Source: Nitrospinota bacterium
Lineage (GTDB): Bacteria > UBA8248
Direction: 5' to 3'
Assembly (NCBI GenBank): GCA_026706735.1
Contig: JAPOYD010000139.1
Location: 16,956 to 80,955, forward strand
Length of the DNA stretch: 64,000 bases
A model generated the notes under the pieces. It did not search any database. It was not told the DNA's origin and was given only the letters and a program-made list of their open reading frames with translations. Positions 2,034 to 35,879 of the stretch are shown here, one piece after another; within the stretch, counting starts at the first letter, position 1, and each line of letters starts with the position of its first letter. The position numbers and the translations under genes were made by a program.

Positions 2034-3430
2034 TTTTTCAGTTCGAACCTCTCATCATAAATGTCGAAATTCGATGACGCCGCCATGTCTCGGGCCTGCG
2101 TGATGAGCTCCCGCGACAGGTTCGAGATGGCAGGATTTTTGAGAAATTCGACGAAGAAATGGTGATAAAACGCATCGGGCCGCACGTGAACGCGCACCCT
2201 GAGCCTCGCCGCATCCTCTCTTCGTCCCCTCCTGTACCGAAACGTGATGGATTTTTGGGGAGGAATGCGCGTGTCATGGATTTCACGGCTGAAATCGGAC
2301 GAGAGTTTCCGCTCTATCACGTTGATCTGCCTTGAACCCGGTATGGTTCGCCCGTATTTATCCTCAAGTTCGGTGATCACGTCCACCGAGGGCGTGATGT
2401 AGGTAGGAAAATAGTGGCCCGCTCCTGAATTCGTGAGCTCAACCTCGGCCGTCACGATTTCGCCGGACGCTTCCGCTCCCACCCTGACGTCTATCTGCAC
2501 GGCGCCCAGGGTCATTTCCTTGTCATGTATGCCCCGCCACAAATGCGCCCGGTCGGGCATGTGGCAGCTCTGGCAGGCGACCCCCTCCTTGCCCCAAAGG
2601 GAGTTTTTCCACTCGCTGTAGGTATTCTGAATCGATTTCCCGTTCGGCCCGGGAAACGCGTGCTGGTGACAACCCATGCAAAATTCAGAGCGGCTGAAAA
2701 AAAGCGTGCGCTCCACACCGGCATGCGGGCCATTACTTGTCGTATCGTCTGCGCCTTCGGGGGTTTCTTTCTTACGGGGACCATGCACCCGCCAGTTGCG
2801 CACATGACACGAGGCGCAGGCCAGCCCGTGCATCTCCAGTTTCGGGTCGTGGGCCGGGTTTTTCCGCCAGTTCGCCGTAGTACCCGCGCCAATCTTCGCG
2901 CGCTTTTGCTGTTCCGCCAAGGGCGCATGGCACTCGTTGCAGCTTTGCGCATTCGCGGGATTCGTTTTCCACATATCGACGAGCTGTCCGTATATGCCCG
3001 GACCCATCGCCCTGGCGTGAAGCGTGGCCTTCCACTGTTCGTGCTGCTCGGGATGACAACTCCCGCAACGCTCCGGCGAAAGGGAGCGTTCAGCGCCTTT
3101 GTATGATTTCGGCGCCTCGCCCATGGGAGGCAATGGATAGCGAAAGTACTCGTCCACGAAATCCTGCCAACGCTTCCATTTGCCGGGAATCCCTTTCTTC
3201 TCGGCAGCCTCGATGGGGGGAAAGAAACCTTTTGATGTCTTCCGGGAAAACGCCGGGAGAGTGAGAAAGAATATGGAAACGATACAGATCCCGAGTTTCA
3301 AGCGCATTCCATGCTTCCTGTTCCGGCGGCCCGTCTGCTTGACCAGTTTGATTTCACCTAACGACACTCGTGCAGACAAGTTCCTGAAAAAATCCGAGAA
3401 ATCGTAGTGCTGCTCCACGCCCGAATCCAT
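2030..3430 (-). CDS. multihaem c-type cytochrome (5 CXXCH motifs) with N-terminal signal/TM; true start probably the internal Met at ~3307
   Basis: Five CXXCH haem-binding motifs: CGSCH, CNECH, CASCH, CMGCH, CQSCH. Hydrophobic segment LGICIVSIFFLTLPAF follows Met-42. Confidence 0.7.
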   Translation of the reverse strand: MDSGVEQHYDFSDFFRNLSARVSLGEIKLVKQTGRRNRKHGMRLKLGICIVSIFFLTLPAFSRKTSKGFFPPIEAAEKKGIPGKWKRWQDFVDEYFRYPLPPMGEAPKSYKGAERSLSPERCGSCHPEQHEQWKATLHARAMGPGIYGQLVDMWKTNPANAQSCNECHAPLAEQQKRAKIGAGTTANWRKNPAHDPKLEMHGLACASCHVRNWRVHGPRKKETPEGADDTTSNGPHAGVERTLFFSRSEFCMGCHQHAFPGPNGKSIQNTYSEWKNSLWGKEGVACQSCHMPDRAHLWRGIHDKEMTLGAVQIDVRVGAEASGEIVTAEVELTNSGAGHYFPTYITPSVDVITELEDKYGRTIPGSRQINVIERKLSSDFSREIHDTRIPPQKSITFRYRRGRREDAARLRVRVHVRPDAFYHHFFVEFLKNPAISNLSRELITQARDMAASSNFDIYDERFELKN

Positions 3431-6811: not shown

Positions 6812-7262
6812 GCCTTTCCGGTCGAGGGGCGTCCCCTCTACCTCCCTCAAGAGACCTTTTTCAACAGCTCCTCATCACTCGCGTTTGACCCCCTGAGTAA
6901 CCCGCCGCTCCGCTTCACCCTGAGTAGCGGCGAAGCCGCGTATCGAAGGGCGAAGCTCGCGGAGAAGCGCCTCCCATCCTTCGATACGCCGCCTTCGGCG
7001 GCTACTCAGGATGAGGTCGATACGGTGGCCATACAAGACGAACTACAAACGCGCTCGCTCCCAAGCCCGGCTTTTTCAACAACCCCTCCTCGCTCGGCTT
7101 CGACCCCTTGCGGCCCTTGGCTAGCTTTGAACGCGGCAATCGCTCCCTTCCCGGCCGCGATTGATCTTAAAACCCGCTCCAAGGCATGCTAAAATGAAGC
7201 GAGGGTTCTCCCCGCTTGCCGGATCAACCCCGACCGGGGAGAGAGGGCTTGCGTTATTCGCG

Positions 7263-7348
7263 GAGGGATGGCCGAGCGGCCGAAGGCGGTGGTCTTGAAA
7301 ACCACTGAGCGAAAGCTCCGGGGGTTCGAATCCCTCTCCCTCCGCCAA
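7263..7348 (+). tRNA. tRNA-Ser (anticodon TGA), class II with long variable arm, CCA encoded
   Basis: Cloverleaf folds by eye: acceptor ggaggga/tccctcc, anticodon loop cuUGAaa, long variable arm, T-loop ttcgaat, discriminator g + cca. Confidence 0.9.
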
Positions 7349-10212: not shown

Positions 10213-10304
10213 GGAGAGATGGCCGAGTGGCTGAAGGCGCTCGCCTGCTAAGCGAGTAGGCTGGGAAACCGGCCTCGAGGGTTCGAATCCCTCTCTCTCC
10301 GCCA
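10213..10304 (+). tRNA. tRNA-Ser (anticodon GCT), class II, CCA encoded
   Basis: Acceptor ggagaga/tctctcc, anticodon loop cuGCUaa, long variable arm, T-loop ttcgaat, g + cca. Confidence 0.9.
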
Positions 10305-17512: not shown

Positions 17513-17995
17513 ATGAAGCGGTTCCACTGGGAAACTTGGGTCGGGCTTGCCGTTCTCGCCTTCAGCCTGGCCGGGCTGGCGCTGATACCCAGCCAGGTGC
17601 TGATCCGGAAGGTGGGGGAGCGCACCATCCCGTTCCCGCCCAGCGCCTTCCCCTCGCTCGCCCTCTCCCTGCTGGCGCTCATGGCCGCCCTGATGGCCGC
17701 GCGGAACTGGTTTTCCCCCTCCTCGGGGCGTGAGCCGCTCCCCGGCGGGCCGCTCCGGACCCGCGCCCTGGTGCCGATCGCCACCTTCGCCGTCTACATC
17801 CTGCTCGTCGAGTGGTTCGGGATGCTCCCGGCCACGCCCGTCGCGGTCGCCCTGTTCGCCTTTCAACTCGGGGTGCGGGATTGGCGGACCCTCGCGCTGA
17901 TCGTTTTGCTCACCCCGCTGTTCATCTGGGTCTTCTTCGGACATTTTCTGGGCGTCGTTCTGCCGGAAGGCAGACTTTCGGGCGAGGTCTTCTAG
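17513..17995 (+). CDS. tctB: tripartite tricarboxylate transporter small subunit TctB
   Basis: 160 aa, 4 TM. Stop lies 1 nt before the tctA start. Confidence 0.7.
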   Translation: MKRFHWETWVGLAVLAFSLAGLALIPSQVLIRKVGERTIPFPPSAFPSLALSLLALMAALMAARNWFSPSSGREPLPGGPLRTRALVPIATFAVYILLVEWFGMLPATPVAVALFAFQLGVRDWRTLALIVLLTPLFIWVFFGHFLGVVLPEGRLSGEVF

Positions 17996-17996
17996 G

Positions 17997-19502
17997 ATGT
18001 GGGCCCAGCTGGCGGAAGGCCTATTCCTGTGCCTGCGCTTCGACGTGCTGGCCGTCCTGGTGATCGGAATGCTGCTGGGGATCGTGGTGGGCGGCCTCCC
18101 CGGCCTGACGGCCGCCATGGCGGTGGCGGTTCTGCTGCCGATCTCGTTCTTCGTCGAACCCGTTCTCGGGATTCCATTCCTCCTGGCCATCACCAAGGGA
18201 GCGATATTCGGCGGATCGATACCCGCGATCCTGATCAACACGCCGGGGACGGGCGCGGCCGCCGCCACCGTCCTGGACGGCTACCCCCTCGCCCAGCAGG
18301 GAAAGGCGAGGAAGGCCCTGGAGATGGCGCTCTATTCCTCCGTCATCGGGGACACCTTCAGCGATATCGTCACTATCTTCATCGCGGGCGCCATCGCGGC
18401 GGTCGCCCTCCTGGTGGGCCCCCCGGAATATTTCGCCATCTTCGTCTTCAGCTTCGCCATCATCAGCTGCGTCACGGGCCGCTCGGTGATCCGGGGGCTG
18501 ATGGCTGCCGCCCTCGGGCTGTTTCTGAGTTCGGTCGGTCTCGACCCCCTGATCGGGGTGCGCCGCTTCACCTTCGGCTCGGTGGACCTGACAGGAGGCA
18601 TCTCGTTCATCGCGATGCTGATCGGAATTTTCGCGCTCTCCGAAATCTTCCTCTACGGAGAGAGGACACGTGCGGAGCGCAAGGCCGAGGACGAGATGCG
18701 AATGACCGCGTGGCGCGCCGAGGGCAACGAACCCCTGACCCTAGAGGAGTTCAGGAGCTGCGGCCGGACGATCTCCCGCTCGGCGGTGGTCGGCACGATC
18801 ATCGGCGCGATACCGGGCCTGGGCCAGGTGGTGTCCGCATTCGTCTCCTACGGCCTGGCGCACCGGAGGTCGAAGGAACCCGAGCGGTTCGGGAAGGGAT
18901 CGCTGGAGGGGGTGGCCGCCGCCGAGACCGGCAACAACGCGGTCAACGGTTCGAGCCTCATCCCCCTGCTCAGCTTCGGCATTCCGGGCGACATCGTGAC
19001 CGCGGTGCTCTTCGCCGCCTTCATGGTGCAGGGGCTCCGGCCGGGCCCCCGCCTCTTCGAGGAGCACGGCGCGATCGTCTACAGCGTCCTGATCGCCATG
19101 CTGCTCTGCAACGCCCTCATGCTCGTCCTCGGGCATTTCAGCCTGCGCTACGTGGCCATGATCGCGCGGTTCCCGAAAAGGGCGGTCTTCCCCGTGGTGG
19201 CGGCATTCTGCGTGGTGGGGACATACGCGCTGAACAACAGCTTCTTCGACGTCAAGGTGATGCTGGTATTCGGGGTGGTGGGCTATCTTCTGAGAAAATT
19301 CGATTTCCCGGTCGCGCCCCTGATCATCACCTTCATTCTGGGGAAGGCGTTCGAGTCTTCCCTCGGACAATCGCTCATTCTGGGAGACGGCGACCTCTCC
19401 CTGTTCGTCCGCCGGCCTATATCGCTCGTTTTCCTCTTGCTGGCCGCGGGGTTCGTCGTCTGGGGCGCCCGCCGCCGAACCCCGCTGGGCAGCGATGAAT
19501 GA
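17997..19502 (+). CDS. tctA: tripartite tricarboxylate transporter permease TctA
   Basis: 501 aa. Duplicated TctA blocks (GGLPGLTAAMAVAVLLP ... GAIPGLGQVVSAFVSYG). Confidence 0.9.
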   Translation: MWAQLAEGLFLCLRFDVLAVLVIGMLLGIVVGGLPGLTAAMAVAVLLPISFFVEPVLGIPFLLAITKGAIFGGSIPAILINTPGTGAAAATVLDGYPLAQQGKARKALEMALYSSVIGDTFSDIVTIFIAGAIAAVALLVGPPEYFAIFVFSFAIISCVTGRSVIRGLMAAALGLFLSSVGLDPLIGVRRFTFGSVDLTGGISFIAMLIGIFALSEIFLYGERTRAERKAEDEMRMTAWRAEGNEPLTLEEFRSCGRTISRSAVVGTIIGAIPGLGQVVSAFVSYGLAHRRSKEPERFGKGSLEGVAAAETGNNAVNGSSLIPLLSFGIPGDIVTAVLFAAFMVQGLRPGPRLFEEHGAIVYSVLIAMLLCNALMLVLGHFSLRYVAMIARFPKRAVFPVVAAFCVVGTYALNNSFFDVKVMLVFGVVGYLLRKFDFPVAPLIITFILGKAFESSLGQSLILGDGDLSLFVRRPISLVFLLLAAGFVVWGARRRTPLGSDE

Positions 19503-19571
19503 GGAGGATTTCACTGAATCGGGGCGCGTGATTTCAGAGAAGGCAACGACAACCCACAGGAGGAACGAACC

Positions 19572-20534
19572 ATGAAACGACTCTCGGCAGTATTGCTCAT
19601 CGCGGCCATGGCGCTTTGGCTGGCGCCGACCCACGCAGAAGCCGCGAAGTTCCCGAACAAGCCCGTGCGGCTGGTCATTCCCTATTCGCCGGGCGGCTCG
19701 CACGACGCGCACGCGCGCGCCTTCGCGAGCGTCATGGAACCCTATCTGGGCCAACCGATGCTCGCGGTCATCCGGGCGGGCGGCGGCGGCTCCATCGGAG
19801 CGAGCTTCGTGGCCCGCGCGCGGGCGGACGGGCACACCCTGATCCTGGGCGACCAGCAGAGCATCCTGGTGAAGCCTCTCCTGGAGAGCCTTCCCTATAC
19901 CTCGGCGTCCTTCGTGCCAGTGGGGCGAATCAACTACAGCCCCCTTCTCATCACCGTGAAGAAAGACGCCCCCTGGAAGAACCTGCGCGACCTGATCGAG
20001 GACGCCAAGCGCAGGCCGGGCAAGATCTCCTTCGGCGGCGTCCCCGGCCTGGGGGTGGACCAGATTCCCATGGAGCTTCTCTCGCTCAAGGCCGGCATCA
20101 AGCTGAAGTTCGTTCCGTTCCAGGGCGGCGGCCCCACCTGGAAGGCCTTCCTCGGCGGGCACATCGACATCGCCCCCGCCTTCGCCTCCACGGTGACGCC
20201 CCAGCTCTCGAAGGGCGCAGTCCGCGTTCTGGCCATCACCGCGCCGGACCGGCTGCCCCAGCTTCCCGACCTGCCCACGATGAAGGAGCAGGGCTTCGAC
20301 GTCCAGTTCGCCATGTTCCGGACGGTCTTTGCGTCCAAGAAGACGCCCGCGGACATCCTGGCGAAGCTACGGGCGGCCTTCGACAAGGGGGTGAAGGACA
20401 AATCCTTCCAGTCCATGGTGAAGCGCATGGGCGAGCGGGTGATCTACATGAGCGGAAAGGACTTCGAATCCTTCATGGTTGCAGAAAACGCCAATATGAA
20501 GGCGCTCGTGGACAAGCTCGTGAAGAAGAAATAG
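19572..20534 (+). CDS. tctC: TctC/Bug-family periplasmic substrate-binding protein
   Basis: Signal peptide; PNKPVRLVIPYSPGGSHD Bug-family N-terminal block. 320 aa. Confidence 0.85.
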   Translation: MKRLSAVLLIAAMALWLAPTHAEAAKFPNKPVRLVIPYSPGGSHDAHARAFASVMEPYLGQPMLAVIRAGGGGSIGASFVARARADGHTLILGDQQSILVKPLLESLPYTSASFVPVGRINYSPLLITVKKDAPWKNLRDLIEDAKRRPGKISFGGVPGLGVDQIPMELLSLKAGIKLKFVPFQGGGPTWKAFLGGHIDIAPAFASTVTPQLSKGAVRVLAITAPDRLPQLPDLPTMKEQGFDVQFAMFRTVFASKKTPADILAKLRAAFDKGVKDKSFQSMVKRMGERVIYMSGKDFESFMVAENANMKALVDKLVKKK

Positions 20535-20683: not shown

Positions 20684-21817
20684 TCAAATTCTCCCGGACG
20701 CGAGGGCGGCGCCCTCGGCCAGGGCCGCCAGCTTGACGTAGACGATGTCGGGATCGACCGCCCCGAAGCCGGCGAAGGTCCCGAACCCACAGTCGGTTCC
20801 GGCGATGACCCGCTCGGGGCCCACGAGCTCCACGAAGCGCCCGATGCGCTGCGCGATGAGCTCTGGATGCTCCACGAAGTTGCTCGTCGTGTCGATGACG
20901 CCGGGCACGAGGATCATATCGTCGGGTATCTCGTCCCGCCGGTCGCGGAATACGGTCCATTCGTGCTCGTGCCGCGGGTTGGCGTTCTCGAACAGGACGT
21001 AGCGCGCGCGGGCCGACATCAGGGCCGAGAACACGTGATCCAGCCCGACGTCGCACACGTGGGGCCCCTCGTAGTTTCCCCAGCAGATGTGGACCCGCAC
21101 CCGCGCCGGGTCGGCGTCGCGCAGGGCGTGGTTCAGCACTTCGATGTTGGCCGCCGCGATCTCGCCGAACTCCGCGTCGGAGCGATCCTCGTAGAGCACG
21201 TGGCGCGCGAGGCCTAAGTCCGGGCAGTCGAGCTGGAGGTCGAAGCCCGCCGCGAGGATCGCGTCGTACTCCGACTTCATCGCGAAGGCCAAGGCTTCCA
21301 GGTAGGCATCGCGCGAGGGGTAGTAGGCGTTCGGCATGAACAGCGCAATGACGCCCGGCGACGCCGCGTTCAGGAATCCGCGCTCCGCACCATGCGCCGC
21401 CATCGCGCTCTTCATATTGGCGATGTCGGCCCTGAGTTCGGCGTCGTCCTTAGGCGCGACCGGCCCGGTGCAGCGCGGGCGGACGAGCTTCGGCGTGCCG
21501 CCTTCGCGCGCGAGGCGCTCGAGATAGCGCGGGAAGAGCTTGAGATCCCCCGGCACGGCCCGCTCGCTTTGGCCGGAGAAGCCGGTGTAGCGGTTCTTGA
21601 CGTAGGTGGTGTAGGAAATCTTGGACGTCTCGCCGTCCGAGACGATGTCGACCCCGGCCTCGACCTGCCGGCGAACCGTCTCCGCGCACTCCTCCGCCAT
21701 GCAGGCGGCGAACTCGTCCGGGTCGTAGGCCTCGCCCCGGTCGCGGGCGAAGAGAAGATCGAGCGCCCGCTCGCTTCTGGGAAGCGACCCGACGTGGGTG
21801 GTGGCGATGCGCGTCAT
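20684..21817 (-). CDS. cobalamin-independent methionine synthase (MetE) C-terminal-domain-like protein (UROD/MetE superfamily)
   Basis: 377 aa; MTRIATTHVGSLPRS start and Zn-ligand-type blocks typical of MetE-like methyltransferases. Confidence 0.65.
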   Translation of the reverse strand: MTRIATTHVGSLPRSERALDLLFARDRGEAYDPDEFAACMAEECAETVRRQVEAGVDIVSDGETSKISYTTYVKNRYTGFSGQSERAVPGDLKLFPRYLERLAREGGTPKLVRPRCTGPVAPKDDAELRADIANMKSAMAAHGAERGFLNAASPGVIALFMPNAYYPSRDAYLEALAFAMKSEYDAILAAGFDLQLDCPDLGLARHVLYEDRSDAEFGEIAAANIEVLNHALRDADPARVRVHICWGNYEGPHVCDVGLDHVFSALMSARARYVLFENANPRHEHEWTVFRDRRDEIPDDMILVPGVIDTTSNFVEHPELIAQRIGRFVELVGPERVIAGTDCGFGTFAGFGAVDPDIVYVKLAALAEGAALASGRI

Positions 21818-21848: not shown

Positions 21849-23273
21849 CTAGATGAACTTCCACGGGCTGTAGAGCGGCACCTTGCTCCTCTTCATGACC
21901 CCTTTCGCCAGGCGACTGATCCGCTCCACGACTTCCGTCTCGTCTATCGACTTGACCTCGCGGTTCTCCATCACGAACTTCCCGTCGACCATGACGCTCT
22001 CGCAGCTGTTCCCCTGGGCGGAATAGACGAAATTCTGGAGTTCGTTGTAGAGGGGGACCCAGTCCGGCCGCTTCATGTCGAAGATGGCGACGTCGGCCTT
22101 CTTGCCCGGCTCGAGGGAGCCGATTTCCCGCTCCATGTTCATCGCCCTCGCGCCGTTGATGGTCGCCATCTCGATGGCCTTCTCAGCACTCCCCGCGGCC
22201 GGGTCGTAGCGGTAGTCCTTGGGCGTCGCCGCCGCCAGATACATGAGGCGCACCATGTCGTTGAAGTTCGAGCAGTCCGACGCGTCGGTGCCGATGGCGA
22301 CGTTGACGCCCGCCTCCATCATCTCCGGGAACTTCCCGAAGGCGGACAGGCCGTAGCTGATCTTCATGGCGGTGCTCGGACAGTGCAAAACGTTCGTCCC
22401 CGTCCTGGCGAGAAGCCCGATCTCCTTGGCGCTCACGTGGACCATGTGGGTGAGGGCCACGTTCTTTCCGAGGACGCCGATGTCGTAGAGGTGTTCGATG
22501 GGGCGGGCGCCGTTCATGCTCAGGCTCTCCTGGACGTTCTCGATCATGTTGGCCTGGTGCATGTGCAGGATGGTCCTGTACTTATCGGCCATCTCCTTGG
22601 ATTTGACGTAAAGCCTGTCCGAGCAGCGCCCCATCCCGACGACGACGACGCAGGGCTTCACGAGCCCTACCCCGCCCCGGTAGTCCTTCATGAACTTCTC
22701 GTTCTCGTTCAGGCATTTCCGGGTGCTATCGACCAGCATGTCGTGGCCCTGGCTCACCATATCGAAGGACCTGCGGCCCATCAGGCCCCGCATTCCGATG
22801 CGAGAGACGCCTTCGATGACGGGGCCGATGTTGTAGGAGCCCGCCTCGAGGAAGGTCGTCACCCCGGTCTTCAGGGTTTCGACCAGGATACCGAGGCCGC
22901 CCCATATCTCGTCCTCCGCATTCACGATGGTGGCGACCTTGCGGTGGACGAAGTCGGACCACGGCATCCCTGCCAGCGTCTCGGGCGAGAGTCCCCGGTG
23001 CATGTGGTGGTAGAAGTGGATGTGCGCGTTGATGAGGCCGGGGGTGACGAGCTTCATTGTGGCGTCGTAGGTGCGTCTGGCCTCGTATTTTTTCTTAAGC
23101 GCCGATGCCTTCCCGACGTCCTTGATCCGGTTCCTCGTGATGGCGACGGCGCCGTTTCGGATGACCCTGCGCTGCGGGTCCACGGTGACGACGGTTCCGT
23201 TCTCAATCAGGACATCCACCCTGGTCTTCGCGGCCATGGCGTCCTCCCCTGCGCAGGATTTCCGTGAATTCAA
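21849..23273 (-). CDS. amidohydrolase (MTA/SAH-deaminase / chlorohydrolase / cytosine-deaminase-like branch)
   Basis: 474 aa. PGLINAHIHFYHH metal-binding HxH, HMHQ, GTDA later in the sequence. Confidence 0.85.
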   Translation of the reverse strand: MNSRKSCAGEDAMAAKTRVDVLIENGTVVTVDPQRRVIRNGAVAITRNRIKDVGKASALKKKYEARRTYDATMKLVTPGLINAHIHFYHHMHRGLSPETLAGMPWSDFVHRKVATIVNAEDEIWGGLGILVETLKTGVTTFLEAGSYNIGPVIEGVSRIGMRGLMGRRSFDMVSQGHDMLVDSTRKCLNENEKFMKDYRGGVGLVKPCVVVVGMGRCSDRLYVKSKEMADKYRTILHMHQANMIENVQESLSMNGARPIEHLYDIGVLGKNVALTHMVHVSAKEIGLLARTGTNVLHCPSTAMKISYGLSAFGKFPEMMEAGVNVAIGTDASDCSNFNDMVRLMYLAAATPKDYRYDPAAGSAEKAIEMATINGARAMNMEREIGSLEPGKKADVAIFDMKRPDWVPLYNELQNFVYSAQGNSCESVMVDGKFVMENREVKSIDETEVVERISRLAKGVMKRSKVPLYSPWKFI

Positions 23274-23549
23274 CTTTTCGTTTGATAAACACTACACAAG
23301 GGGATTCGGGGTGGCAACCGAGGCGAAAGGGCAAACGCTCGAAGGGATGACGGGAAGCGCACGCCATCCCGGGGAGGGAAACCCGAGATTTCCGGTTGGG
23401 GAAAACGGTCGATAACCACCATACGCGCCACCGGAATAATTGACAGCCGAACAGATTCCTGTTTATAACTGATTCATCTGAGCAGAATAGAAAATGTCGG
23501 TTGATCCCCTGGGAGCGGAGTGCGAGTTCCCCGCGAATGAGGAGGGAGT

Positions 23550-25166
23550 TTGGGTATGGGCGAGAACGCTCGAATCGAAATCATCAACCCCATCGCCGCC
23601 GTGGCGGATGAAGGCGGCCCTGGCGAAGGCGCCGCAGTCAAGGGTCTGGACGGGCTCCGCATCGCCCTCCTCGACAACAGCATGCCCCACGCGGGCGATT
23701 TTCTGAACCACGTCGGCGAAGCCTTCGCCGAGCGGCACGACGCGAAGCTCCTGGTGCGCAAGAAGGGCTGGGCCGCCCAGGGCGCAGGCCAGGAGACGCT
23801 CGATGAGATTGCGTCTAACTGCGACGTGGCGGTAACCGGCTTCGGGGTCTGAGGGGGCTGCACGTCGTGGAGTGTCCACGACTCGGCCGAGCTCGAAAAG
23901 CGCGGCGTCCCCACCGTGGTGGTGGTGGGCAACGGCTTCGAGACGGCGGCGCGCAGCTTCGCCAAAGCCTATAAATCCCCCCACCTCCGTCTTCTCCTGG
24001 TGGACGACACCGTGGCCCACCAGGGCGGAGACGCCCTGATGCGCATCGCGCAAAGCGGCGTGGATTCGGTGGCCGCCGAATGGATGAACACAGCGAACGG
24101 AGGTGAGTCCGCAGCCGTCGCCGATGACCCCATCGAGCGGGTCCTCACGATCGCGGGAGACCCCATCGGTGCGAACGGGGCGCTCTTCGATCTGGGGGCG
24201 ACGGACGGGCTGCCCGTCATCCCCCCCACCCTGGAGATGGTGGAAAGGTTCGTGGCGGCCTCGGGCAGAAAGGGCGATGAGGTCATCGCGCGCCTCATGC
24301 CGAGGCTGGCGGACATCACCGTCGAGCGGATCGCGGCCAACGCCGTCATGGCGGGCTGCGCGCCGGGCGTCATGCCCATCCTCGTGACCGCGGTGCAGGC
24401 CATGGGGGCGGAGGAGTACCACGTCAACCACGTCATCACGACGGCGCATACCCTGTTTCCCATCGTCGTGGTGAGCGGCCCCATCGCCCGGGAGATCGGG
24501 ATGAGCGACGGGCGCGACTTGAGTTCGCAGGGCTGGGGGGTGAACGCCTCCATCGGCCGCGCGGTCAAACTGATCATGTTCAACTGCATCGGCGACCTCG
24601 AAAACCGGGGCGCCACATGCCAGGGCCATTTCGCCAAGTATTTCGACGCCATCACCGAGAACGTGGAACAAAGCCCCTGGGAGCCGCTCCACGTGGAGAA
24701 GGGTTTTTCAGAGTCCGACAGCGTGGTGACGGTGTTCACCGCCGAACCCCTCCACATGGTGGACGATCACAGCGCGCTCACCGCCCAGGGCATCCTGGGC
24801 ACATTCGGGACCGTCGCCGCCTGCTCGGGCACCCGGCCGCAGTTCGGCCGCTGCGAGATCATGCTCATCTTCGGCCCCACCCACGCGAACAAGGTCGCAG
24901 AGGCGGGGTTCGACAAGAAGCTCGTGCGCGATTTCCTCTGCGAGGTCTACCGGATTCCGGTAAATACCTTTCCTCCCGAATCACGGGAGCGCTGGAGCGA
25001 CTGGAAGCAGATGCTCTACGGGGTGAACACGATGGAGAACGCGACCCTTCCCTTCGTCGAGGAGAGGGACGACATCACCATCCTGGTGCACGGCGGCGCG
25101 GGGCCGAACTCCCTCCTGGCGCCGGGCGCGCTGAACCACCGATCCGTGACGCGGAAGATCGACTAG
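23550..25166 (+). CDS. candidate selenoprotein: UGSC-like UxxC redox domain fused to a ~420-aa uncharacterised domain; in-frame TGA at 23850-23852 read as Sec
   Basis: ORFs 23550..23852 and 23916..25166 are in the same frame, separated only by TGA; the 21 codons between are coding-like. Local translation is VTGFGV-U-GGCTSW (U-x-x-C). A hairpin starts 11 nt after the UGA. Confidence 0.55.
23861..23887 (+). promoter_or_regulatory. SECIS-like stem-loop 11 nt downstream of the in-frame UGA
   Basis: gtcgtgg-agtgt-ccacgac: 7-bp stem, apical loop contains G and U, and 2 more closing pairs after an internal loop. Confidence 0.4.
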
Positions 25167-25169
25167 ACC

Positions 25170-26204
25170 ATGCCCGAGGCGCTCCTGAGCGAACTGCCGC
25201 CCGGTGCGGAAGCCGCACTCGAAGCCGCGATGGAGGGGGGGCCGGGCGACGGCCTTCCCCTCGTTCCGCCCACGCGCAGGGCGGTCGACGCCATGCTCGG
25301 CGCCGTTCAGGAGGGCCCCCGCCACGCGCTGGGGATCATGGCGCCCGCCATGGAAGAGGTGACGGTGGGCGACGCCGCCGTCTGCGCGGTGGCGGCCGGG
25401 TGCAAGCCTTCGTATTTCCCGGTGGTTCTGGCGGCGCTCGAAGCCGTGATGGAGCCCGAGTTCAATTTTCTGGCCATCCAGGCGACCACCGAGCTCGCCT
25501 CGCCTCTGGTGATCGTCCACGGGCCGATCGCCGAGCGGTTAGGCGTGCACTCGGGCAGTGGATGCCTGGGGCCGGGCTTCCGGGCGAACGCCGCGATCGG
25601 CCGCGCCGTCCGCCTGGCCGCCGTAAGGCTGGGAATGGCGGTTCCCGGCGAGACCGACATGGCGACTTTCGGACACGGCGGGAAGTTCTCCGCCTGTTTC
25701 GCCGAGGCGGTCTGCGGCTGGGAGCCGCTCCACGCGACGCGGGGGTTTCGCGCCGAGCAGAGCGCGGTGACGGTGGTGGGCGCGGATGCGCCTGTGAACG
25801 TGAACGATTACGCGAGCGGCAGTGCGGAGAGCGTGCTGCGCATGATAGCCGGCACGATGGCCTATCCCGGCTCGAACAACGCCCAGGGCGGCGGGGAGGT
25901 GCTCCTCGTCATCAGCCCCCAGCACCTGGGTCTCCTCGTCTCGGGCGGCATGGATCGGATGGATGTGCAGCGCGCGCTGTTCGAGGGCGCGCGCGTGCCC
26001 ATGAAGCGTTTTTCGCCCGAGATAGCCGAGCGCGTGCGGGGCAGGCGGCCGGGGCTTTTTACAGACGCCGAACCCGATGCCGTGCCGGTGGCGGACGGGC
26101 CGGCGAGCATTCTCATCGCCGTGGCCGGGGGGCCGGGGAGCCACACGCTGTTCTTTCCGACCTACGGCGAGACCCGGGCGGTCACGAAGCCTGTACGCGG
26201 CTAG
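25170..26204 (+). CDS. uncharacterised protein, paralog of the C-terminal domain of the candidate selenoprotein
   Basis: Aligns with 23916..25166 over shared blocks (DGLP[VL][IV]PPT, VMAGCAPG/VAAGCKPS, NA[SA]IGRAV[KR]L, GWEPLH). Same frame as the upstream gene, TAG stop, 3-nt gap. Confidence 0.6.
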   Translation: MPEALLSELPPGAEAALEAAMEGGPGDGLPLVPPTRRAVDAMLGAVQEGPRHALGIMAPAMEEVTVGDAAVCAVAAGCKPSYFPVVLAALEAVMEPEFNFLAIQATTELASPLVIVHGPIAERLGVHSGSGCLGPGFRANAAIGRAVRLAAVRLGMAVPGETDMATFGHGGKFSACFAEAVCGWEPLHATRGFRAEQSAVTVVGADAPVNVNDYASGSAESVLRMIAGTMAYPGSNNAQGGGEVLLVISPQHLGLLVSGGMDRMDVQRALFEGARVPMKRFSPEIAERVRGRRPGLFTDAEPDAVPVADGPASILIAVAGGPGSHTLFFPTYGETRAVTKPVRG

Positions 26205-26494: not shown

Positions 26495-27904
26495 TTGACT
26501 GGCAAGAAGGAGACACCGATGGCGGACAGGAGCAACGTCGACGTTCTCGTAGTCGGAGCGGGCATGGCCGGGGTGTGCGCCGCCATCGCCGCGGCGCGGG
26601 GCGGCGCGCGGACGGTCCTCACGGACCGCTACGCCTTCCTGGGGGGCAACGCGACCGCGGGCCTTCTCGGCAACTTCCTCACCTTCCACAACATGAAGGG
26701 GGAGCAGATCTGCGACGGTATCCCCCAGGAGATCGTGGACGAGCTCATCAAGCTGGGCGGCGCCTTTCCCGAGGGCCACCTCCACAACGCTTACGGCAAC
26801 TCCTACTCCGTAACGCCCCAGGACGGCGAGGTGCTCAAGCTCGTGAACCAGAAGCTCTGCCTGGAGGCGGGCGTGGACCTGGTGCTGAACACCTACACGA
26901 TCGGACCCATCATGGACGGCGACCGGGTGGCCGGGGCGCGCATCGTGAACAAGAGCGGGGAGAGCGAGATCCGCGCGCAAGTCGTCATCGACGCGAGCGG
27001 GGACGCGGACATCGCCGCGCAGGCGGGCGCGCCCTTCCATCTCGGTGATGAAGAGGGGAAGATGATGTCCATCAGCCTCTTCTCGCGGATGGGGAACGTG
27101 GACCTTGACCGCCACATCCAGCACGTGAAGGAGAACCCCTACAACTTCATGCTCGGCGAGGACCCCTACATCGGGAAGAGCCGCGAGGAGATCGCTGCAG
27201 GGCTCCGCACCCACAAGGACTACCCCCTCGTGACCGGCTACTACGAGTCGGTCAAGCTCGCCCAGTCGCGCGGTGAATTTCACCCGAACCGCCAGCGGGT
27301 GGTGTTTTCCATCACCACCATCCCCGGCGTCGTCACCATCAACTCAACGAGCATGCTGGGCTACAGCGGAATCGACAACGACGATCTGAACCAGGTCGCC
27401 ATCGAGGGCCGCGAGCAGGTATTCAAGGTGCGCGATTTCTACCGCAAATACGCCCCCGGCTTCGAGGAGTGCTACGTGGTGGATTCGGCCTCGGCCATCG
27501 GCGTCCGAGAGACGCGCCGCATCATCGGGGAGGAGACCCTCACGGATGAGGACTGCATCGAGGCGCGCAAGGGACCGCGCGACATCGGCCAGGGGGCCTA
27601 CTGCCTGGACGTCCACCAGCCCACCGGCGTGATCGAGCACAAGCACGTCAGGGACGGCGAGGCCTACGGCATTCCCTACGGCGTCATGCTTCCCCAGAAG
27701 ATCGAAAACTGCCTCGTGGCGGGCCGGCCCGTCTCGAGCGATCGCTTCGCGAACGGCTCCGTGCGCAACCAGGCCCACATCATGACCATCGGGCAGGCGG
27801 CGGGTACGGCGGCGGCCATGTGCGTGGAGCGCAGGACGACCCCGCACGAGCTGCCGGTCGAGCCGCTGCGGGAGAAGCTTCGCCAGGATGGAGCGGTCGT
27901 GTGA
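26495..27904 (+). CDS. FAD-dependent oxidoreductase (PF12831-like)
   Basis: N-terminal dinucleotide-binding motif VDVLVVGAGMAGVCAAIAAARGG. 469 aa. Confidence 0.75.
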   Translation: MTGKKETPMADRSNVDVLVVGAGMAGVCAAIAAARGGARTVLTDRYAFLGGNATAGLLGNFLTFHNMKGEQICDGIPQEIVDELIKLGGAFPEGHLHNAYGNSYSVTPQDGEVLKLVNQKLCLEAGVDLVLNTYTIGPIMDGDRVAGARIVNKSGESEIRAQVVIDASGDADIAAQAGAPFHLGDEEGKMMSISLFSRMGNVDLDRHIQHVKENPYNFMLGEDPYIGKSREEIAAGLRTHKDYPLVTGYYESVKLAQSRGEFHPNRQRVVFSITTIPGVVTINSTSMLGYSGIDNDDLNQVAIEGREQVFKVRDFYRKYAPGFEECYVVDSASAIGVRETRRIIGEETLTDEDCIEARKGPRDIGQGAYCLDVHQPTGVIEHKHVRDGEAYGIPYGVMLPQKIENCLVAGRPVSSDRFANGSVRNQAHIMTIGQAAGTAAAMCVERRTTPHELPVEPLREKLRQDGAVV

Positions 27905-27956
27905 CCGCTTCTTGGAATTTGCATCATCCGATCACCCAGAAAAGGGAGGAGAAACG

Positions 27957-29228
27957 ATGAAACGTTCCAGACGCTGGCTGTGCCTTATCGCCGTAGCCGC
28001 CCTCGTAGCGGGGTTAGCACTTCCCGCCGCGGCGGCCAAGACGGTCACGCTCCTCATCCACCCGACCCTGTTCAAGGCGGGGGGCGGGCCTAAGGGCGTC
28101 GTGGCCGACCTCGAGAAGGAAAAAGGCATCAAGGTGACCGTGGTGACCACCCCCTTCGGGAAGATCAAGGACAAGGCGGTGCTCTCCTTCGCAGCCGGAG
28201 GCGGGCAGTTTGACGTGGTGTCCTGGGTGGGCCCATGGGTCACCGAGGAAACGATAGGCTTCCTGGAGCCGCTGGACAAGTACATCAAGAGCGCGCCCAA
28301 GGGCTATGCCTACGGGGACATCATCCCCGCCCTGTCGAATATCACCCGCTTTCCAAAGCCTGACGGGCCCGCCTACGGCGTTCCCTACCGGACGGGAACG
28401 GGCATCGTCTACTACCGAAAGGACCTCTTCGCGGCGGCCAAACTCTCGATTCCCAAGACGTGGGATGAGTTCCTCGCCGCGGCCGAGAAGCTGAACCAGC
28501 CCGGCAAGGTCTACGGCGTCGTCCAGCGCGGAAAGCCGGGCGTCCACGTGGAGCAGGATTTCCTGCGCTATCTCCACAGCTCGGGCCACGGCGTACTCTC
28601 GGCCGACAACAAGACCTGCCTGCTGGATCGCGCCGATTCGATCAAGCTGCTCGAGGTTTTCGGAAAACCCTTCCACAGCGGCTGGTCCCCGCCCGACATG
28701 CTGGCCTGGGGCCGGGACGAATACCGCACCGCCATGATGCAGGGCCGCGCGGCCATGGGGGTTTACTTCTCCCCCTACTGGGGCCTGATGACCAACCCCA
28801 AGAAGGCCAAAACGGCCGACAAGCTGGGCTGGTTCCTCGTTCCCTCGATGGACGGGAAGAACCGCGGCGCTACCCTGAACGGCGGCTGGCACCTCATCAT
28901 GGACAAGAAGAGCAAGAACAAGGCGGCGGCTTGGGAACTCATCATGGCGCTCACCAACAAAAAGAACCAGCTCCGCGGCGCCCTGTACTGGGCGAACGGA
29001 CCCGTCCGCAGTTCGGTCTACACCAACGCGGACTATCTGAAAAAATTCCCGGTGGCGAAGGCGTGGCTGACCGCCATCAGCCGCGGCAGCGGCGAAGCCC
29101 AGCATCCGCGCGCCGCGGAGATCAGCGACGTCACCTCGAAGGAAGTCATCAACTTCCTGCAGAAGAAGAAGAGCGCCAAGCAGGCCATGGGGGACGCCTG
29201 CAAGCAGATCAACGCGGTCATCAAGTAG
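27957..29228 (+). CDS. ABC transporter substrate-binding protein (carbohydrate-type, SBP family 1)
   Basis: RBS aagggagga then ATG 27957. Signal peptide MKRSRRWLCLIAVAALVAGLALPAAA. 423 aa. Confidence 0.85.
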   Translation: MKRSRRWLCLIAVAALVAGLALPAAAAKTVTLLIHPTLFKAGGGPKGVVADLEKEKGIKVTVVTTPFGKIKDKAVLSFAAGGGQFDVVSWVGPWVTEETIGFLEPLDKYIKSAPKGYAYGDIIPALSNITRFPKPDGPAYGVPYRTGTGIVYYRKDLFAAAKLSIPKTWDEFLAAAEKLNQPGKVYGVVQRGKPGVHVEQDFLRYLHSSGHGVLSADNKTCLLDRADSIKLLEVFGKPFHSGWSPPDMLAWGRDEYRTAMMQGRAAMGVYFSPYWGLMTNPKKAKTADKLGWFLVPSMDGKNRGATLNGGWHLIMDKKSKNKAAAWELIMALTNKKNQLRGALYWANGPVRSSVYTNADYLKKFPVAKAWLTAISRGSGEAQHPRAAEISDVTSKEVINFLQKKKSAKQAMGDACKQINAVIK

Positions 29229-29361
29229 GGCGTCTGGGGAATAGAGGGTTTGTAGGGACAGGCCCCCGTGCCTGTCCCTGTCAAGCGTAACCAAGGAGAT
29301 GGATATATCCGATACGGGCGGCCACGGGGGGCCGCCCCTACGGGTGAATGCGCTTTTGTTC

Positions 29362-29491
29362 GTCATTCCGGCGGATGCCGGAATCCAGGGACTTTGTTTT
29401 TGTATTTGTCTTTTCGCTTTATCGTTTTTCTTGGTCTTCCTGCGATTCGGTATCCCCGTCTGCTCTGGATTCCGGCATCCGCCGGAATGAC
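29362..29491. repeat. MITE-like 130-bp element: 27-bp terminal inverted repeats gtcattccggcggatgccggaatccag flanking an AT-rich 76-bp core
   Basis: Left arm 29362-29388 is the exact reverse complement of right arm 29465-29491. Confidence 0.75.
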
Positions 29492-29713
29492 GGCGGTGGT
29501 CAATTCCGAATGACGAGGGATGGGAAGGTTGTTTCCCCGCGTCCCTCGATACGGCCCTTGCGGGCCTACTCGGGATGAGGGTGCTTTTATTTTTCCTCAC
29601 CCTGAGTAGCCGCGTAGCGGCGTATCGAAGGGTACTCCCGATACGCCCCATTTGACCCTCCCTCCTCGGTCGGGTCAAACCCTCGATACGGCGCGCAAGC
29701 GCGCCTGCTCGGG

Positions 29714-30700
29714 ATGAGGCGGGTTGAAGGTGCGTCCGGCACAGAGGCCGGCGGAGGAACGGAGAGGATCGTGAATACCGGAGCCGTTCAGGAAACGGCG
29801 CGGCGGGGGAGCCGGGCTTGGCTCACCCCCGCGAGAAAACAGGCGCTGGCGCCCTACCTGCTCATGTCGCCCGCCTTCGCCATACTCACCGGAATCCTGG
29901 TCTATCCCTCGCTTTACAACATCTATCTCTCCATGTGGAAATGGCGTCTCACAACGCCGCATCTTTCCACCTTCGTCGGCATCGACAACTACGTTCGCCT
30001 GCTCACGGCCGACCCCGACTTCTGGCCGGTGACGCGCTTCAGCCTGGGCTTCACCGTGGCCACCATCGCCCTGGAATTCATCATCGGGGTGGCGAGCGCC
30101 TTGCTGCTCTACGGCTTGGTGCGCGGCAGGCGGCTCATGACGTCCTTTCTACTCACCCCCTACATGGTCGCCCCCATCGCCGTGGGCCTCGGCTGGCGGC
30201 TCATGTGGGACCGCGATATCGGCATCGTGAACTACATCATCACCTTCGTGGGGCTCGCCAAGGTGAACTGGCTCGCCGAGACCGACGCCGCTTTCTGGGC
30301 CATCGTGATCTCAGAAGTCTGGCGCTCGACGCCCTTCGTCACCATGATCCTCCTGGCGGGCATCACGGCGCTTCCCAACGAGGTGTTCGAGGCCGCCCAC
30401 GTGGACGGCGCGAACCGGGTGCAGGTGTTCCGGCGGATCACCTTTCCGCTCATCCTTCCCCCGCTGGTGGTGGCGCTGCTCTTCCAGACCATCTTCAAGC
30501 TGCGGGTGTTCGAGATACCCTACATCCTCACCGAGGGAGGGCCGGGCACGTCCACCATGCCCTACGGCCTGCTCATCCAGCGCACTTATTTCCGTTATTT
30601 CGACGTGGGCAACGCGGCGGCCACCTCGGTCGTCCTCCTCGTGCTCGGCACGGGGATCGCGCTCGCCTACCTGCGGCTCATCCAGGACAGGGACGGCTAG
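29714..30700 (+). CDS. carbohydrate ABC transporter permease (MalF/UgpA-like); start uncertain
   Basis: 6 TM helices; EAA-type loop (EAAHVDGANRVQVFRRITFPL). Confidence 0.85.
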   Translation: MRRVEGASGTEAGGGTERIVNTGAVQETARRGSRAWLTPARKQALAPYLLMSPAFAILTGILVYPSLYNIYLSMWKWRLTTPHLSTFVGIDNYVRLLTADPDFWPVTRFSLGFTVATIALEFIIGVASALLLYGLVRGRRLMTSFLLTPYMVAPIAVGLGWRLMWDRDIGIVNYIITFVGLAKVNWLAETDAAFWAIVISEVWRSTPFVTMILLAGITALPNEVFEAAHVDGANRVQVFRRITFPLILPPLVVALLFQTIFKLRVFEIPYILTEGGPGTSTMPYGLLIQRTYFRYFDVGNAAATSVVLLVLGTGIALAYLRLIQDRDG

Positions 30701-30703
30701 GCG

Positions 30704-31552
30704 ATGGCGCGGGGCGAAGAGCAGATCGGGCCGGGGATCCCCTCCTTCCCGGCGGCGCGCGGCGCGATGATGGTGCTGCTCGCGTTCAGCCTGTTCCCGA
30801 TCCTGTGGATCATGCTCACCTCGGTGAAGAACGAGACCGCCATCTTCAGCATCCCGCCCAAGGTCTTCGTGAGCCCGGATTTCTCCTCGTACTGGAAGTT
30901 CCTGGGCTTCGGCAACGAATCGGCTCTGCGGTTCATCTGGAACAGCACCTTCATCGCGACGATTACGACGTTCCTCACCCTGTTCGTCTCTTCCCTGGCG
31001 GCCTACGCGTTTTCGCGCTACCGTTTCCGGGCGTCGAACTATCTTCTGTTCTTCATGCTGGCGACGCGCCTGCTGCCGCCCGTCACCGCGGTGGTTCCGC
31101 TCTACCTGTTGTTCCGCTACCTCCAGATACTCGACACGCGGTTCATCCTGATCCTCATCTACACCGCCCTCAACATCCCCTTCGGCACCTGGCTGATGAA
31201 GGCGTTTTTCGACGGCATCCCGAAAGAACTCGAAGAGGCCGCTGCTCTCGACGGCTGCGGGGCGCTGCGCACACTGGCGCGGGTGACCTTTCCCCTCGCC
31301 TCCTCAGGGATAGCCGCGACCTCCATCTTCGTCTTCCTGCTGGCCTGGAACGAGTTCATGTTCGCGTTCATGCTGACCAACGTGCACGCGCGCACCATCC
31401 CCGTCCGGCTGGCGGAGACCATGGGCGAGATGCAGGTATTCTGGCAGGACATGTCCACCCTGGCGACGCTGATCATGCTGCCCGCCCTGCTCGTGGGCTT
31501 TTTCATGCAGCGCTATCTCATCCGCGCCCTCACGGCGGGGGCGGTGAAGTAA
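30704..31552 (+). CDS. carbohydrate ABC transporter permease (MalG/UgpE-like)
   Basis: EAAALDGCGALRTLARVTFPL loop. 282 aa. Confidence 0.85.
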   Translation: MARGEEQIGPGIPSFPAARGAMMVLLAFSLFPILWIMLTSVKNETAIFSIPPKVFVSPDFSSYWKFLGFGNESALRFIWNSTFIATITTFLTLFVSSLAAYAFSRYRFRASNYLLFFMLATRLLPPVTAVVPLYLLFRYLQILDTRFILILIYTALNIPFGTWLMKAFFDGIPKELEEAAALDGCGALRTLARVTFPLASSGIAATSIFVFLLAWNEFMFAFMLTNVHARTIPVRLAETMGEMQVFWQDMSTLATLIMLPALLVGFFMQRYLIRALTAGAVK

Positions 31553-31649
31553 TGGCCGTGTTCGGGGTCAAACGCGAGCGAAAAGGGGTTGTTGAAAAAG
31601 TCCCTGAGAGGGTAAAGGCAACCCCCTTGAAAGGGAAACTTCATAAAAG

Positions 31650-31762
31650 CAACCCCCCCTACCCCCCCTTGACAGGGGGGCAAGAAAAAGCAAAGGCCCT
31701 CTGCCCGTCGGGGGTGCATCGCCTTTTTATACCCCCCTGTCAAGGGGGGGTAGGGGGGGTTC
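31650..31762. repeat. ~115-bp G/C-tract palindromic intergenic element, copy 2
   Basis: Near-identical to 6697-6811; centre differs at a few positions. Confidence 0.8.
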
Positions 31763-31910
31763 GTTTTCAGGGCGCTGGAATGACGATCAAAAGCGAGGAG
31801 CAAAACCACCTTTCCGCATTAGATAGCACTCTTGGGGACATCACTCCCCCCGCAAGGCCTTTTTCACCAGCCGCGTTCGGGGCGCGGGGCGCGATGATGG
31901 AGGAGTCGGC

Positions 31911-32987
31911 TTGAGCACCATCAGTATGGAGAACCTGAGCAAGCACTTCGGCAGCGTCCGCGCCGTGGACGAGATCGACCTCGAAGTCGCCGAGGGGGAG
32001 TTCCTCGTCCTGGTGGGGCCCTCGGGCTGCGGGAAGACGACGACGCTGCGCATGGTGGCCGGGCTGGAGTTTCCCACGGGCGGCGAGATACGCGTCTCGG
32101 GCGAGCGCGTGAACGAGATTCCCGCCAAGGATCGCAACATGGCCATGGTGTTCCAGAACTACGCCCTCTACCCCCACATGACGGTCTACGAGAACATGGC
32201 CTTCGGCCTGCGCGTCCGGCGGTTCTCCCAGGGAGACATCGACCGCCGCGTCAAGGAGGCCGCCGCCCTGATGGGGCTGGAGGACCTGCTCGCCCGCAAG
32301 CCCCGCCAGCTCTCGGGCGGACAGCGCCAGCGCGTGGCGGTCTGCCGGGCCATCGTGCGCGACCCGGTGGCGTTTCTCTTCGACGAGCCGCTCAGCAACC
32401 TGGACGCCAAGCTCCGCGTCACCGCCCGGGCCGAGATACGCAAGCTCCAGCGCCGCCTGGGCACGACCTCCATCTACGTCACCCACGACCAGACCGAGGC
32501 GATGACGATGGGAGACCGCATCGTCGTCATGGATCTGGGAAAGATCCTGCAGGTGGGGCCGCCCATCGAGCTCTACGACCGGCCCGTCAACCGCTTCGTG
32601 GCGGGGTTTCTGGGAAGTCCGGCCATGAACTTCATCGAGGGCCGCGCACACCGGGCGGAGGGAGGTCTCGAACTCGAAGCGGGCGCCCTGCGCTTCCCCC
32701 TGCCTGGGATCTGCCGGGAGGGAGAGGCCTACACCCTCGGCTTCCGCCCCGAGCACCTGGGTTTTGGAGACGGCGGGGCGCGCCCCGTATCCGCCGAGGG
32801 GCGGGTGGAACTCGTCGAACCCCTGGGGTCGGACACCTTCGTCGCACTCGACCTGGGCGGAGAGGTCCTCACCGTGAAGGAAGAAGGCCATTTCCGCGCG
32901 CAGGTGGGCGAGCAGATCCGGGTGTTCTTCGACATGGAGAACGCCCACCTGTTCGACGGCGACACCGGAACGCGGGTGGAGGGGTGA
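31911..32987 (+). CDS. ABC transporter ATP-binding protein (MalK/UgpC-type with C-terminal TOBE domain)
   Basis: Walker A GPSGCGKTT, signature LSGGQRQR, Walker B LFDEPLSNLD. Confidence 0.9.
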   Translation: MSTISMENLSKHFGSVRAVDEIDLEVAEGEFLVLVGPSGCGKTTTLRMVAGLEFPTGGEIRVSGERVNEIPAKDRNMAMVFQNYALYPHMTVYENMAFGLRVRRFSQGDIDRRVKEAAALMGLEDLLARKPRQLSGGQRQRVAVCRAIVRDPVAFLFDEPLSNLDAKLRVTARAEIRKLQRRLGTTSIYVTHDQTEAMTMGDRIVVMDLGKILQVGPPIELYDRPVNRFVAGFLGSPAMNFIEGRAHRAEGGLELEAGALRFPLPGICREGEAYTLGFRPEHLGFGDGGARPVSAEGRVELVEPLGSDTFVALDLGGEVLTVKEEGHFRAQVGEQIRVFFDMENAHLFDGDTGTRVEG

Positions 32988-34733: not shown

Positions 34734-35879
34734 ATGTCGAAGAAAGAGTCTCATGAGCATCCCGAAATCATCATTCCCGAATCATCCGATCTCTCGCGCA
34801 GGAGCTTTATCCAGACCCTTGGCGTAGCCGGCGCCGTGGCCGCGGCACCGATGGTGTTGACGACGCGCAAGGCGGACGCAATGAAATGGCCCGCTCGCCC
34901 CATCACGGGGGTGGTGATGTACGCCGCAGGCGGCGGCACGGACACCGTCATCCGCACCCTGTGCGGCGAGATGGCCCGCACCACCGGCTGGCCCGTCAAC
35001 GTCATCAACCGCCCCGGCTCGGTGGGGGGCGTGGCCACCCGTTACGTGCTCAACAAGGCGGCCGACGGCTACACCTGGCTGGGCGCCGGGAACTACAACA
35101 AGTTCGTCCGGCCGATGGGATACACGGATTCGGCGGCGTGGGTGGACTGGCAGCACTTCGCGGCGGCTGCTTCGCTCGCGAGCTGGTCGGTGCGGCCCGA
35201 CTCACCTTTCAAGACCTTCAACGACGTGGTTGCCGCGGCCAAGAAGAAATCCGGCAAGCTCACCATCTCGACTTCGGGCGTGGGCAGCATCTGGCACGAG
35301 GTGGGCGCCACCGTCGCGGACGCAGCGGGCATCGAATTGCGCTTCGTGCCCTACAAGGGCGGAAAACCGGCCACCGTCGCGGGCTTACAGGGCGAGGTGG
35401 ACATCGCAGGCGGCGGCGTGCACGAGCACGTCGAGTTCCTGCGCGCCGGCAAGCTGCGCAACCTCATGCACACGGGGCCGAAGGATCTGGACATTTCCAA
35501 CTACGGGAAGGCGTACACCATCGCCAACTTCATACCCGCGCTCAAGGCCTTGTTGCCGATGGGCGGGATGTACAGCATCGCCCTGAGGCGGGAGACGCCC
35601 GTCGACGTGCTCAACAAGATCAAGCCGGTCTGGATCGCAGCTGCGAACTCCGAGGCCTTCGGGAAAATCGCCACGCGCAAGTACTTCCAGATCGACGTCC
35701 GCGTGGGTGCGGACGCCGACCGCCGGGCCGCGCAACTCGAGTGCCTGAGCGCCGCGACCCTGCTCAAGCTGCAGAAGCACATCGGCAAGAAGGTGCGCGG
35801 ACCCAAGGAACTCGGGCTTCCCGAACCGAAGGATTTCGACGCCTGGTGGCCGCCGAAAGGCTACAAACCTCGCATATGA
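34734..35879 (+). CDS. tctC: TctC/Bug-family substrate-binding protein with Tat signal
   Basis: Tat-type signal SRRSFIQTLGVAGAVAAA; Bug-family fold blocks. Confidence 0.8.
   Translation: MSKKESHEHPEIIIPESSDLSRRSFIQTLGVAGAVAAAPMVLTTRKADAMKWPARPITGVVMYAAGGGTDTVIRTLCGEMARTTGWPVNVINRPGSVGGVATRYVLNKAADGYTWLGAGNYNKFVRPMGYTDSAAWVDWQHFAAAASLASWSVRPDSPFKTFNDVVAAAKKKSGKLTISTSGVGSIWHEVGATVADAAGIELRFVPYKGGKPATVAGLQGEVDIAGGGVHEHVEFLRAGKLRNLMHTGPKDLDISNYGKAYTIANFIPALKALLPMGGMYSIALRRETPVDVLNKIKPVWIAAANSEAFGKIATRKYFQIDVRVGADADRRAAQLECLSAATLLKLQKHIGKKVRGPKELGLPEPKDFDAWWPPKGYKPRI

Follow-up and report, generated by a model that had tools for sequence, protein, structure and literature searches.

The stretch analysed here (the window) comprises 64,000 nucleotides from a Nitrospinota bacterium (GTDB lineage Bacteria; UBA8248; assembly GCA_026706735.1, contig JAPOYD010000139.1, positions 16,956 to 80,955 of the forward strand), and our subject is a plus-strand gene for a predicted selenoprotein. 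Two open reading frames (ORFs), 23550..23852 and 23916..25166, lie in the same frame, whose sole interruption is a TGA at 23850-23852, as a preliminary description of the locus had stated. Translation through this codon gives ...DVAVTGFGV-U-GGCTSWSVHD..., where U stands for selenocysteine (Sec). On the sequence comparisons given below, we consider it highly probable that 23556..25166 is a single gene encoding a selenoprotein of 536 residues, in which the UGA at 23850..23852 is decoded as Sec (residue 99, opening a U-G-G-C motif) with a selenocysteine insertion sequence (SECIS) at 23864-23882, and which ends at a TAG (25164-25166). The product would combine an N-terminal UGSC domain (residues 9-176; 23580..24083) with a second domain of about 348 residues (24120..25163) from an unnamed family, called C-domain here. 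ATG 23556 is more likely to be the start codon than TTG 23550, because it is preceded at a distance of 10 nt by the Shine-Dalgarno sequence AGGAGG (23540..23545) and orthologues likewise begin with M-G/N-E. The fusion product of about 539 residues proposed in the preliminary description thus keeps its layout, a UGSC-type domain followed by a large C-terminal domain, with 536 residues counted from ATG 23556. The TGC at 23859..23861 encodes the cysteine of the UxxC motif, a candidate resolving cysteine; the motif is mostly U-G-[SGA]-C in homologues, with serine at this last position in a minority. Ahead of the fusion gene, neither a promoter nor a terminator consensus was detected.

The Pfam domain UGSC (PF24696) spans the TGA, matching residues 9-176 to profile positions 2-170 of 172 with 128.6 bits at a cutoff of 25, and the kinship to UGSC proteins noticed beforehand is thereby borne out. 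In database searches, the close orthologues (P0001-P0026, 63-94% identity) are all about 414 aa long and cover only about 77% of the query, and N-terminal fragments of 99-101 aa are called separately in orthologous loci. Public annotations accordingly treat the TGA as a true stop between two genes, here a UGSC fragment of 98-100 aa and a protein of 416 aa initiated at GTG 23916, and the lack of visible Sec machinery in the window would fit such an arrangement. We nevertheless regard it as very improbable. Gene callers stop at TGA, and the gene is therefore split in annotation; the database orthologues of about 414 aa are cut at the same TGA. A single Pfam domain would be cut by the stop, the GTG at 23916 has no Shine-Dalgarno sequence ahead of it (as already pointed out in the preliminary description), and the 21 bridging codons, suspected there to be coding, are indeed conserved at the protein level among orthologues. 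Moreover, uninterrupted homologues of 530-538 aa cover 93-99% of the query, and all seven full-length ones carry Cys exactly where the TGA aligns, within CGSC or CGAS.

The comparison extends well beyond close relatives. In 80 species-level genomes with the fusion, the codon aligned to the window TGA is TGA in 78 of 84 UGSC domains and TGC or TGT in the other six. A metagenome scan gave TGA at 82/82 UGSC sites; it was seeded with the UGSC motif CTSWS[IVL]HD only, from a narrower alignment as the first UGSC alignment proved too diverse for a seed, and is biased towards that motif subfamily. Genomes and metagenomes together thus have TGA at 160 of 166 UGSC sites, accompanied by a covarying hairpin, which is missing from the Cys forms. 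Used by itself as a query, the UGSC domain gave at least six proteins in a database search. The check suggested with the original description, namely a search for homologues with Cys or Sec at the TGA, hence came out in favour of a selenoprotein gene.

The putative SECIS hairpin (23864..23882, plus strand) has a stem of 8 bp (23864-71/23875-82) and an apical loop GUG (23872-74). Counted from the U of the UGA, the two strands of the stem occupy +15..+22 and +26..+33 and the loop +23..+25, with G at +23 and U at +24. The position of the hairpin and the G and U in its loop had been described correctly; the pairing had been drawn as a 7-bp stem with an agtgt loop, for which eight pairs closing on GUG are the better solution. 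The E. coli fdhF SECIS presents G and U at +23/+24. The window hairpin resembles this type in starting 11 nt past the UGA and in placing G and U of its apical loop at the same positions, but differs from it by a perfect 8-bp stem, a loop of only 3 nt and no evident bulged U. A search of Rfam gave no family matching the hairpin.

Nearly all Sec-form loci share this hairpin (+15..+33), topped by a GU[N] loop at +23; the six Cys-form loci all lack it. In an ungapped alignment of 78 sequences (75 distinct), 92.7% of the stem cells are paired, and compensatory changes altered both sides in seven of the eight pairs, for example G-C to C-G in ten sequences. None of 500 shuffles matched the observed values, and pairing dropped to 19-50% when the partner strand was slid. 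The independent metagenome set behaves alike, with at least seven of eight pairs formed at 76/76 sites and GU at +23/+24 at 75 of 76. Among orthologues, the 21-codon stretch with the hairpin has undergone unusually few synonymous changes.

A lone stop in an otherwise intact ORF is also the expected look of a sequencing or assembly error, or of a pseudogene, and sequencing error had been named beforehand as a possible refutation. In practice this explanation is refuted and hardly deserves any credence. Four orthologous loci (L001, L002, L081 and L082, with 93, 92, 81 and 68% identity), from independent assemblies, each keep exactly one in-frame TGA, the same as in the window; in the two closest, L001 and L002, synonymous changes outnumber non-synonymous ones on either side of it, a sign of purifying selection; and TGA occurs in 160 distant loci as well. 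Elsewhere in the window TGA is an ordinary stop, ending nine of the 19 Pfam-supported genes, which indicates that the recoding is site-specific and the genetic code standard.

Some observations weigh against Sec decoding. Neither selA, selB and selD nor a tRNA-Sec gene was found in the 64-kb window by ORF scans and tRNA search. Taken alone, the window hairpin folds no better than shuffled sequence, of which 36 of 200 versions do equally well (z = -0.88), so that its significance comes only from the comparison across sequences. Finally, the window protein reaches 99.4 bits on the NCBIfam UGSC equivalog NF041046, below the cutoff of 125, which a fused Cys homologue (P0029) passes with 129.2 bits. 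Because of this score, the window protein with its U-G-G-C motif is to be taken, on sequence, as a somewhat divergent UGSC member. Its closest relatives come from sponge metagenome-assembled genomes (MAGs) labelled 'Nitrospinota', and sponge-associated 'Nitrospinota' MAGs have been reported among the richest bacterial selenoproteomes, with 48-54 selenoprotein genes (PMC13326102). On balance, Sec decoding at this codon appears very well supported.

The claim that the selenoprotein is undescribed and its architecture unrecognised did not survive comparison with the literature and the databases. The UGSC-containing protein has figured as a selenoprotein in the literature since 2007 (PMC1976440), and a 2008 study (PMC2398784) counts UGSC, with 255 Sec and 21 Cys sequences, among the most abundant selenoprotein families of the Global Ocean Sampling data. 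The same study presents a 'UGSC/Unknown_1' fusion (Fig. S1A), whose second part is a conserved, functionally uncharacterised domain that has a conserved Cys and also occurs alone. Recent reviews still list UGSC among families of unknown function (PMC13188914). The window gene shares with this family (PF24696; NF041046; Zhang & Gladyshev 2007/2008) a profile match that spans the Sec codon, Sec or Cys at the motif column, a dominance of Sec over Cys forms and a SECIS directly downstream; it differs in the motif, U-G-G-C instead of U-G-S-C, in staying under the equivalog cutoff, and in that the UGSC domain makes up only the N-terminal third of a 536-aa protein. Since the C-domain is the only UGSC fusion partner we found, it is the obvious candidate for Unknown_1, with which it shares the fusion to UGSC, the conserved Cys and the stand-alone occurrence; this identity is not confirmed. 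The window gene is a member of a known family, in an architecture that has probably been published already. New here are the size of the C-domain family, its presence with UGSC wherever the flank is long enough to judge, the reversed, tandem and reductase-fused architectures, and the flavodoxin-like model of the UGSC domain.

The C-domain family is very large (8,079 representatives), and no relatives were found in Pfam, NCBIfam or PDB. Its landmarks in the window protein are a DGLP motif (24204-15), the Cys of a MAGC motif (24357-59, residue 268) and the Arg of a GRA motif. The Asp of DGLP (Asp29) is invariant in 159/159 homologues and the Arg of GRA (Arg147) in 150/150. At least 80 species-level genomes, spread over many phyla, and 80 metagenome loci carry the fusion of UGSC to a C-domain of about 350 aa, which is usually mis-annotated as two ORFs. 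At 66 of the 82 UGSC-seeded metagenome sites a C-domain was found, directly behind UGSC in 61 cases and at a downstream distance of about 1 kb in five; at the other 16 the flank is too short for judging its presence. In every locus with sufficient flank, UGSC and C-domain are co-encoded or fused.

Several architectures occur. Besides the UGSC-C-domain fusions, called at full length or cut at Sec, there are stand-alone C-domain proteins of about 350 aa, natural tandem C-domain proteins of about 710 aa, and fusions in the reversed order, C-domain-UGSC, which end exactly at profile position 92 and are again cut at Sec. In Dehalococcoidia, UGSC and C-domain are adjacent separate genes. One predicted protein of 695 aa (P0169) joins a C-domain, without UGSC, to a near-full-length thioredoxin-disulfide reductase (TrxR; TIGR01292, 331 bits, with a CAVCD motif). 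Where UGSC is a stand-alone gene, as in L085, a 285-aa ORF (4538..5395 in L085; beginning MHVHHGPDP..., metal-dependent hydrolase-like) separates it from the C-domain gene, and an SBP_bac_1 protein comes next. Opposite the selenoprotein gene of the window runs an antisense ORF of 409 aa (23463..24692, minus strand) with no Pfam match; the same shadow ORF lies opposite the C-domain in 30 loci and is most likely an artefact of GC-rich antisense sequence, not a gene.

Structure models were made for the natural Cys-form fusion P0029 and for the window's own C-domain. The UGSC domain is predicted to be a flavodoxin-like domain of five beta/alpha units, in which the loop joining strand 3 to helix 3 would hold Sec (its equivalent in P0029 is Cys105), with the Cys three residues on, placing the UxxC motif at a helix N-terminus. 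This agrees with the earlier placement of the motif after a beta-strand of a Rossmann-like domain, and departs from the literature guess of a thioredoxin-like fold; no thioredoxin fold was seen around UxxC in the modelled UGSC domain. The two-domain model has a predicted template modelling score (pTM) of 0.90. Searches of PDB by sequence profile gave no match for either domain, and neither of them matched the GrdB/PrdB family PF07355 at E<=10. A minority of UGSC domains are of the U/C-G-x-S type and have no second motif Cys, comprising Sec forms (L017, L023, L025 and L062) as well as Cys forms (L038, L039, P0031-33 and P0038). All such domains checked keep the MAGC Cys of the C-domain, with numbers too small for a compensating pattern.

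Downstream, the fusion gene is followed on the same strand by what looks like its operon. A C-domain paralogue of 344 aa (25170..26204; 31% identity, E 3e-40) begins 3 nt past the stop of the fusion gene, a position kept in L081 and L082. Next comes an oxidoreductase dependent on flavin adenine dinucleotide (FAD; PF12831, 26495..27904, E 1.6e-108), a candidate electron donor that also follows the paralogue in L001, L081 and L082. Genes for an ATP-binding cassette (ABC) importer identified with Pfam complete the series (27888..32987), with an SBP_bac_1 binding protein (27888-29228), two permeases (29714-30700 and 30704-31552) and a MalK-like ATPase (31911-32987). The importer genes have the same order in L081 and L082, and the genes upstream differ. 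In a neighbour survey of distant loci no universal partner gene was found: TctC/Bug-type binding proteins lie near the fusion gene in 25-29 of 80 loci, and genes for MmgE/PrpD, CoA-transferase III, acyl-CoA dehydrogenase and SDR proteins recur only in subsets. These neighbourhoods suggest a link to organic-acid or small-solute metabolism.

Other genes of the window can be listed briefly. A TctB-TctA-TctC tripartite tricarboxylate transporter (17513..20534, plus strand) lies 3 kb upstream of the fusion gene, and more TctC-like and TctA genes occur at 34734..35879 and 48703..50241. An amidohydrolase of the TRZ/ATZ or deaminase type (21849..23273, minus strand) is divergent from the fusion gene and not conserved beside orthologues; it scores 201 bits against the NCBIfam 'putative selenium metabolism protein SsnA' (cutoff 455), probably superfamily similarity only. 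A MetE-like protein of 377 aa (20684..21817, minus strand), with the catalytic domain of cobalamin-independent methionine synthase, stays well under all equivalog cutoffs. A molybdopterin-binding hydroxylase large subunit (3..2033, plus strand) runs off the window start and adjoins a multihaem cytochrome c (2030..3430, minus strand). Two tRNA-Ser genes (7262..7347 and 10213..10304, anticodons TGA and GCT) flank a subtilase-family gene (7587..10028, 813 aa). In L082, the locus with 68% identity, two separately called genes upstream of the orthologue (8849..9589) encode a GntR helix-turn-helix domain of 67 aa and an FCD domain of 128 aa; they could be a FadR-type regulator split by a frameshift or another recoding event.

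As to function, we tentatively propose, at rather less than even chances, that UGSC and C-domain constitute a widespread two-module selenoenzyme that has gone unrecognised. The C-domain, whose fold has no solved relative, would bind, at the site of its invariant Asp and Arg, a small organic substrate that probably has a carboxylate, and the flavodoxin-like UGSC domain would supply a catalytic selenol that is recycled by a flavoprotein. The Sec/Cys pair would be the redox-active centre and may work at the Asp/Arg-lined site of the C-domain, as suggested by the high pTM, the two fusion orders and the co-occurrence of both domains in every informative locus. For a redox role speak the position of UxxC at a helix N-terminus, the fusion of a C-domain to TrxR and the FAD oxidoreductase conserved in the operon. 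The selenenyl-sulfide would be re-reduced by a flavoprotein, here possibly the PF12831 oxidoreductase and in one case the fused TrxR. Tandem forms and the coupled paralogue point to a (pseudo)dimer of C-domains, and the fusion protein would probably associate with the co-translated paralogue (25170..26204) as a heteromer. The substrate might be a small organic solute brought in by the ABC transporter of the operon. By way of a functional analogy only, such an enzyme would work like GrdB/PrdB of glycine and D-proline reductase, where the Sec of a UxxC motif acts together with a separate partner that binds the substrate, and is re-reduced by a thiol or flavin system; unlike there, no pyruvoyl-type partner was identified, and there is no sequence match to any Grd/Prd family.

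Several points weigh against this proposal. The MAGC Cys, invariant in a first alignment of 83 C-domain sequences, is Ala in 20 of 159 homologues (13%), mostly in fusions whose UGSC domain contains Sec; the motif Cys of UGSC is replaced by Ser in some domains, leaving no universal thiol partner; the C-domain-TrxR fusion is known from one protein only; and neighbours other than the TctC-type binding proteins vary by lineage. The first of these also bears on another possibility, in which UGSC is a built-in thioredoxin-like reductant whose Sec/Cys pair reduces a disulfide or sulfenate on a catalytic MAGC cysteine. The first alignment had encouraged this idea, as do the presence of a dithiol reductase in place of UGSC in P0169 and the conserved Cys in fused domains reported in PMC2398784. 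It is doubtful all the same, given that Asp29 and Arg147 are invariant and the Cys is not, and that the modelled UGSC domain lacks a thioredoxin fold. Because the MAGC Cys is lost in 13% of homologues, a simple Sec-to-Cys relay is unlikely as a general mechanism, and we rejected this Cys as an essential relay partner.

Alternatively, Sec could serve as a ligand or carrier, handing a metal, sulfur, selenium or an acyl or alkyl group to or from the C-domain without redox cycling. Such a role would accommodate UGSC domains that miss the second Cys (UGSS, UGTS) and the vast excess of Sec over Cys forms, seen in our genome and metagenome loci and in PMC2398784, and the UGGC region has a weak, sub-threshold likeness to the Pfam CGGC domain (E 0.15). 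That likeness is at chance level, however, redox pairs typically show such a UxxC at the N-terminal end of a helix, and flavoprotein reductases occur in the operon and in one fusion; we therefore consider a carrier role quite unlikely.

For annotation, the consequence of preferring a single recoded gene is that two "hypothetical" ORFs of the window become one selenoprotein gene. Existing knowledge is not overturned: what the locus adds is an uncharacterised partner family, whose operons also encode flavoprotein reductases and solute importers. UGSC is a major environmental selenoprotein family that has been without a known function for almost 20 years, and the partner family gives an experimental handle on it. 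If the two-module selenoenzyme proposed here is real, it would represent a new class of Sec-dependent reductases and account for the more than tenfold excess of Sec over Cys forms.
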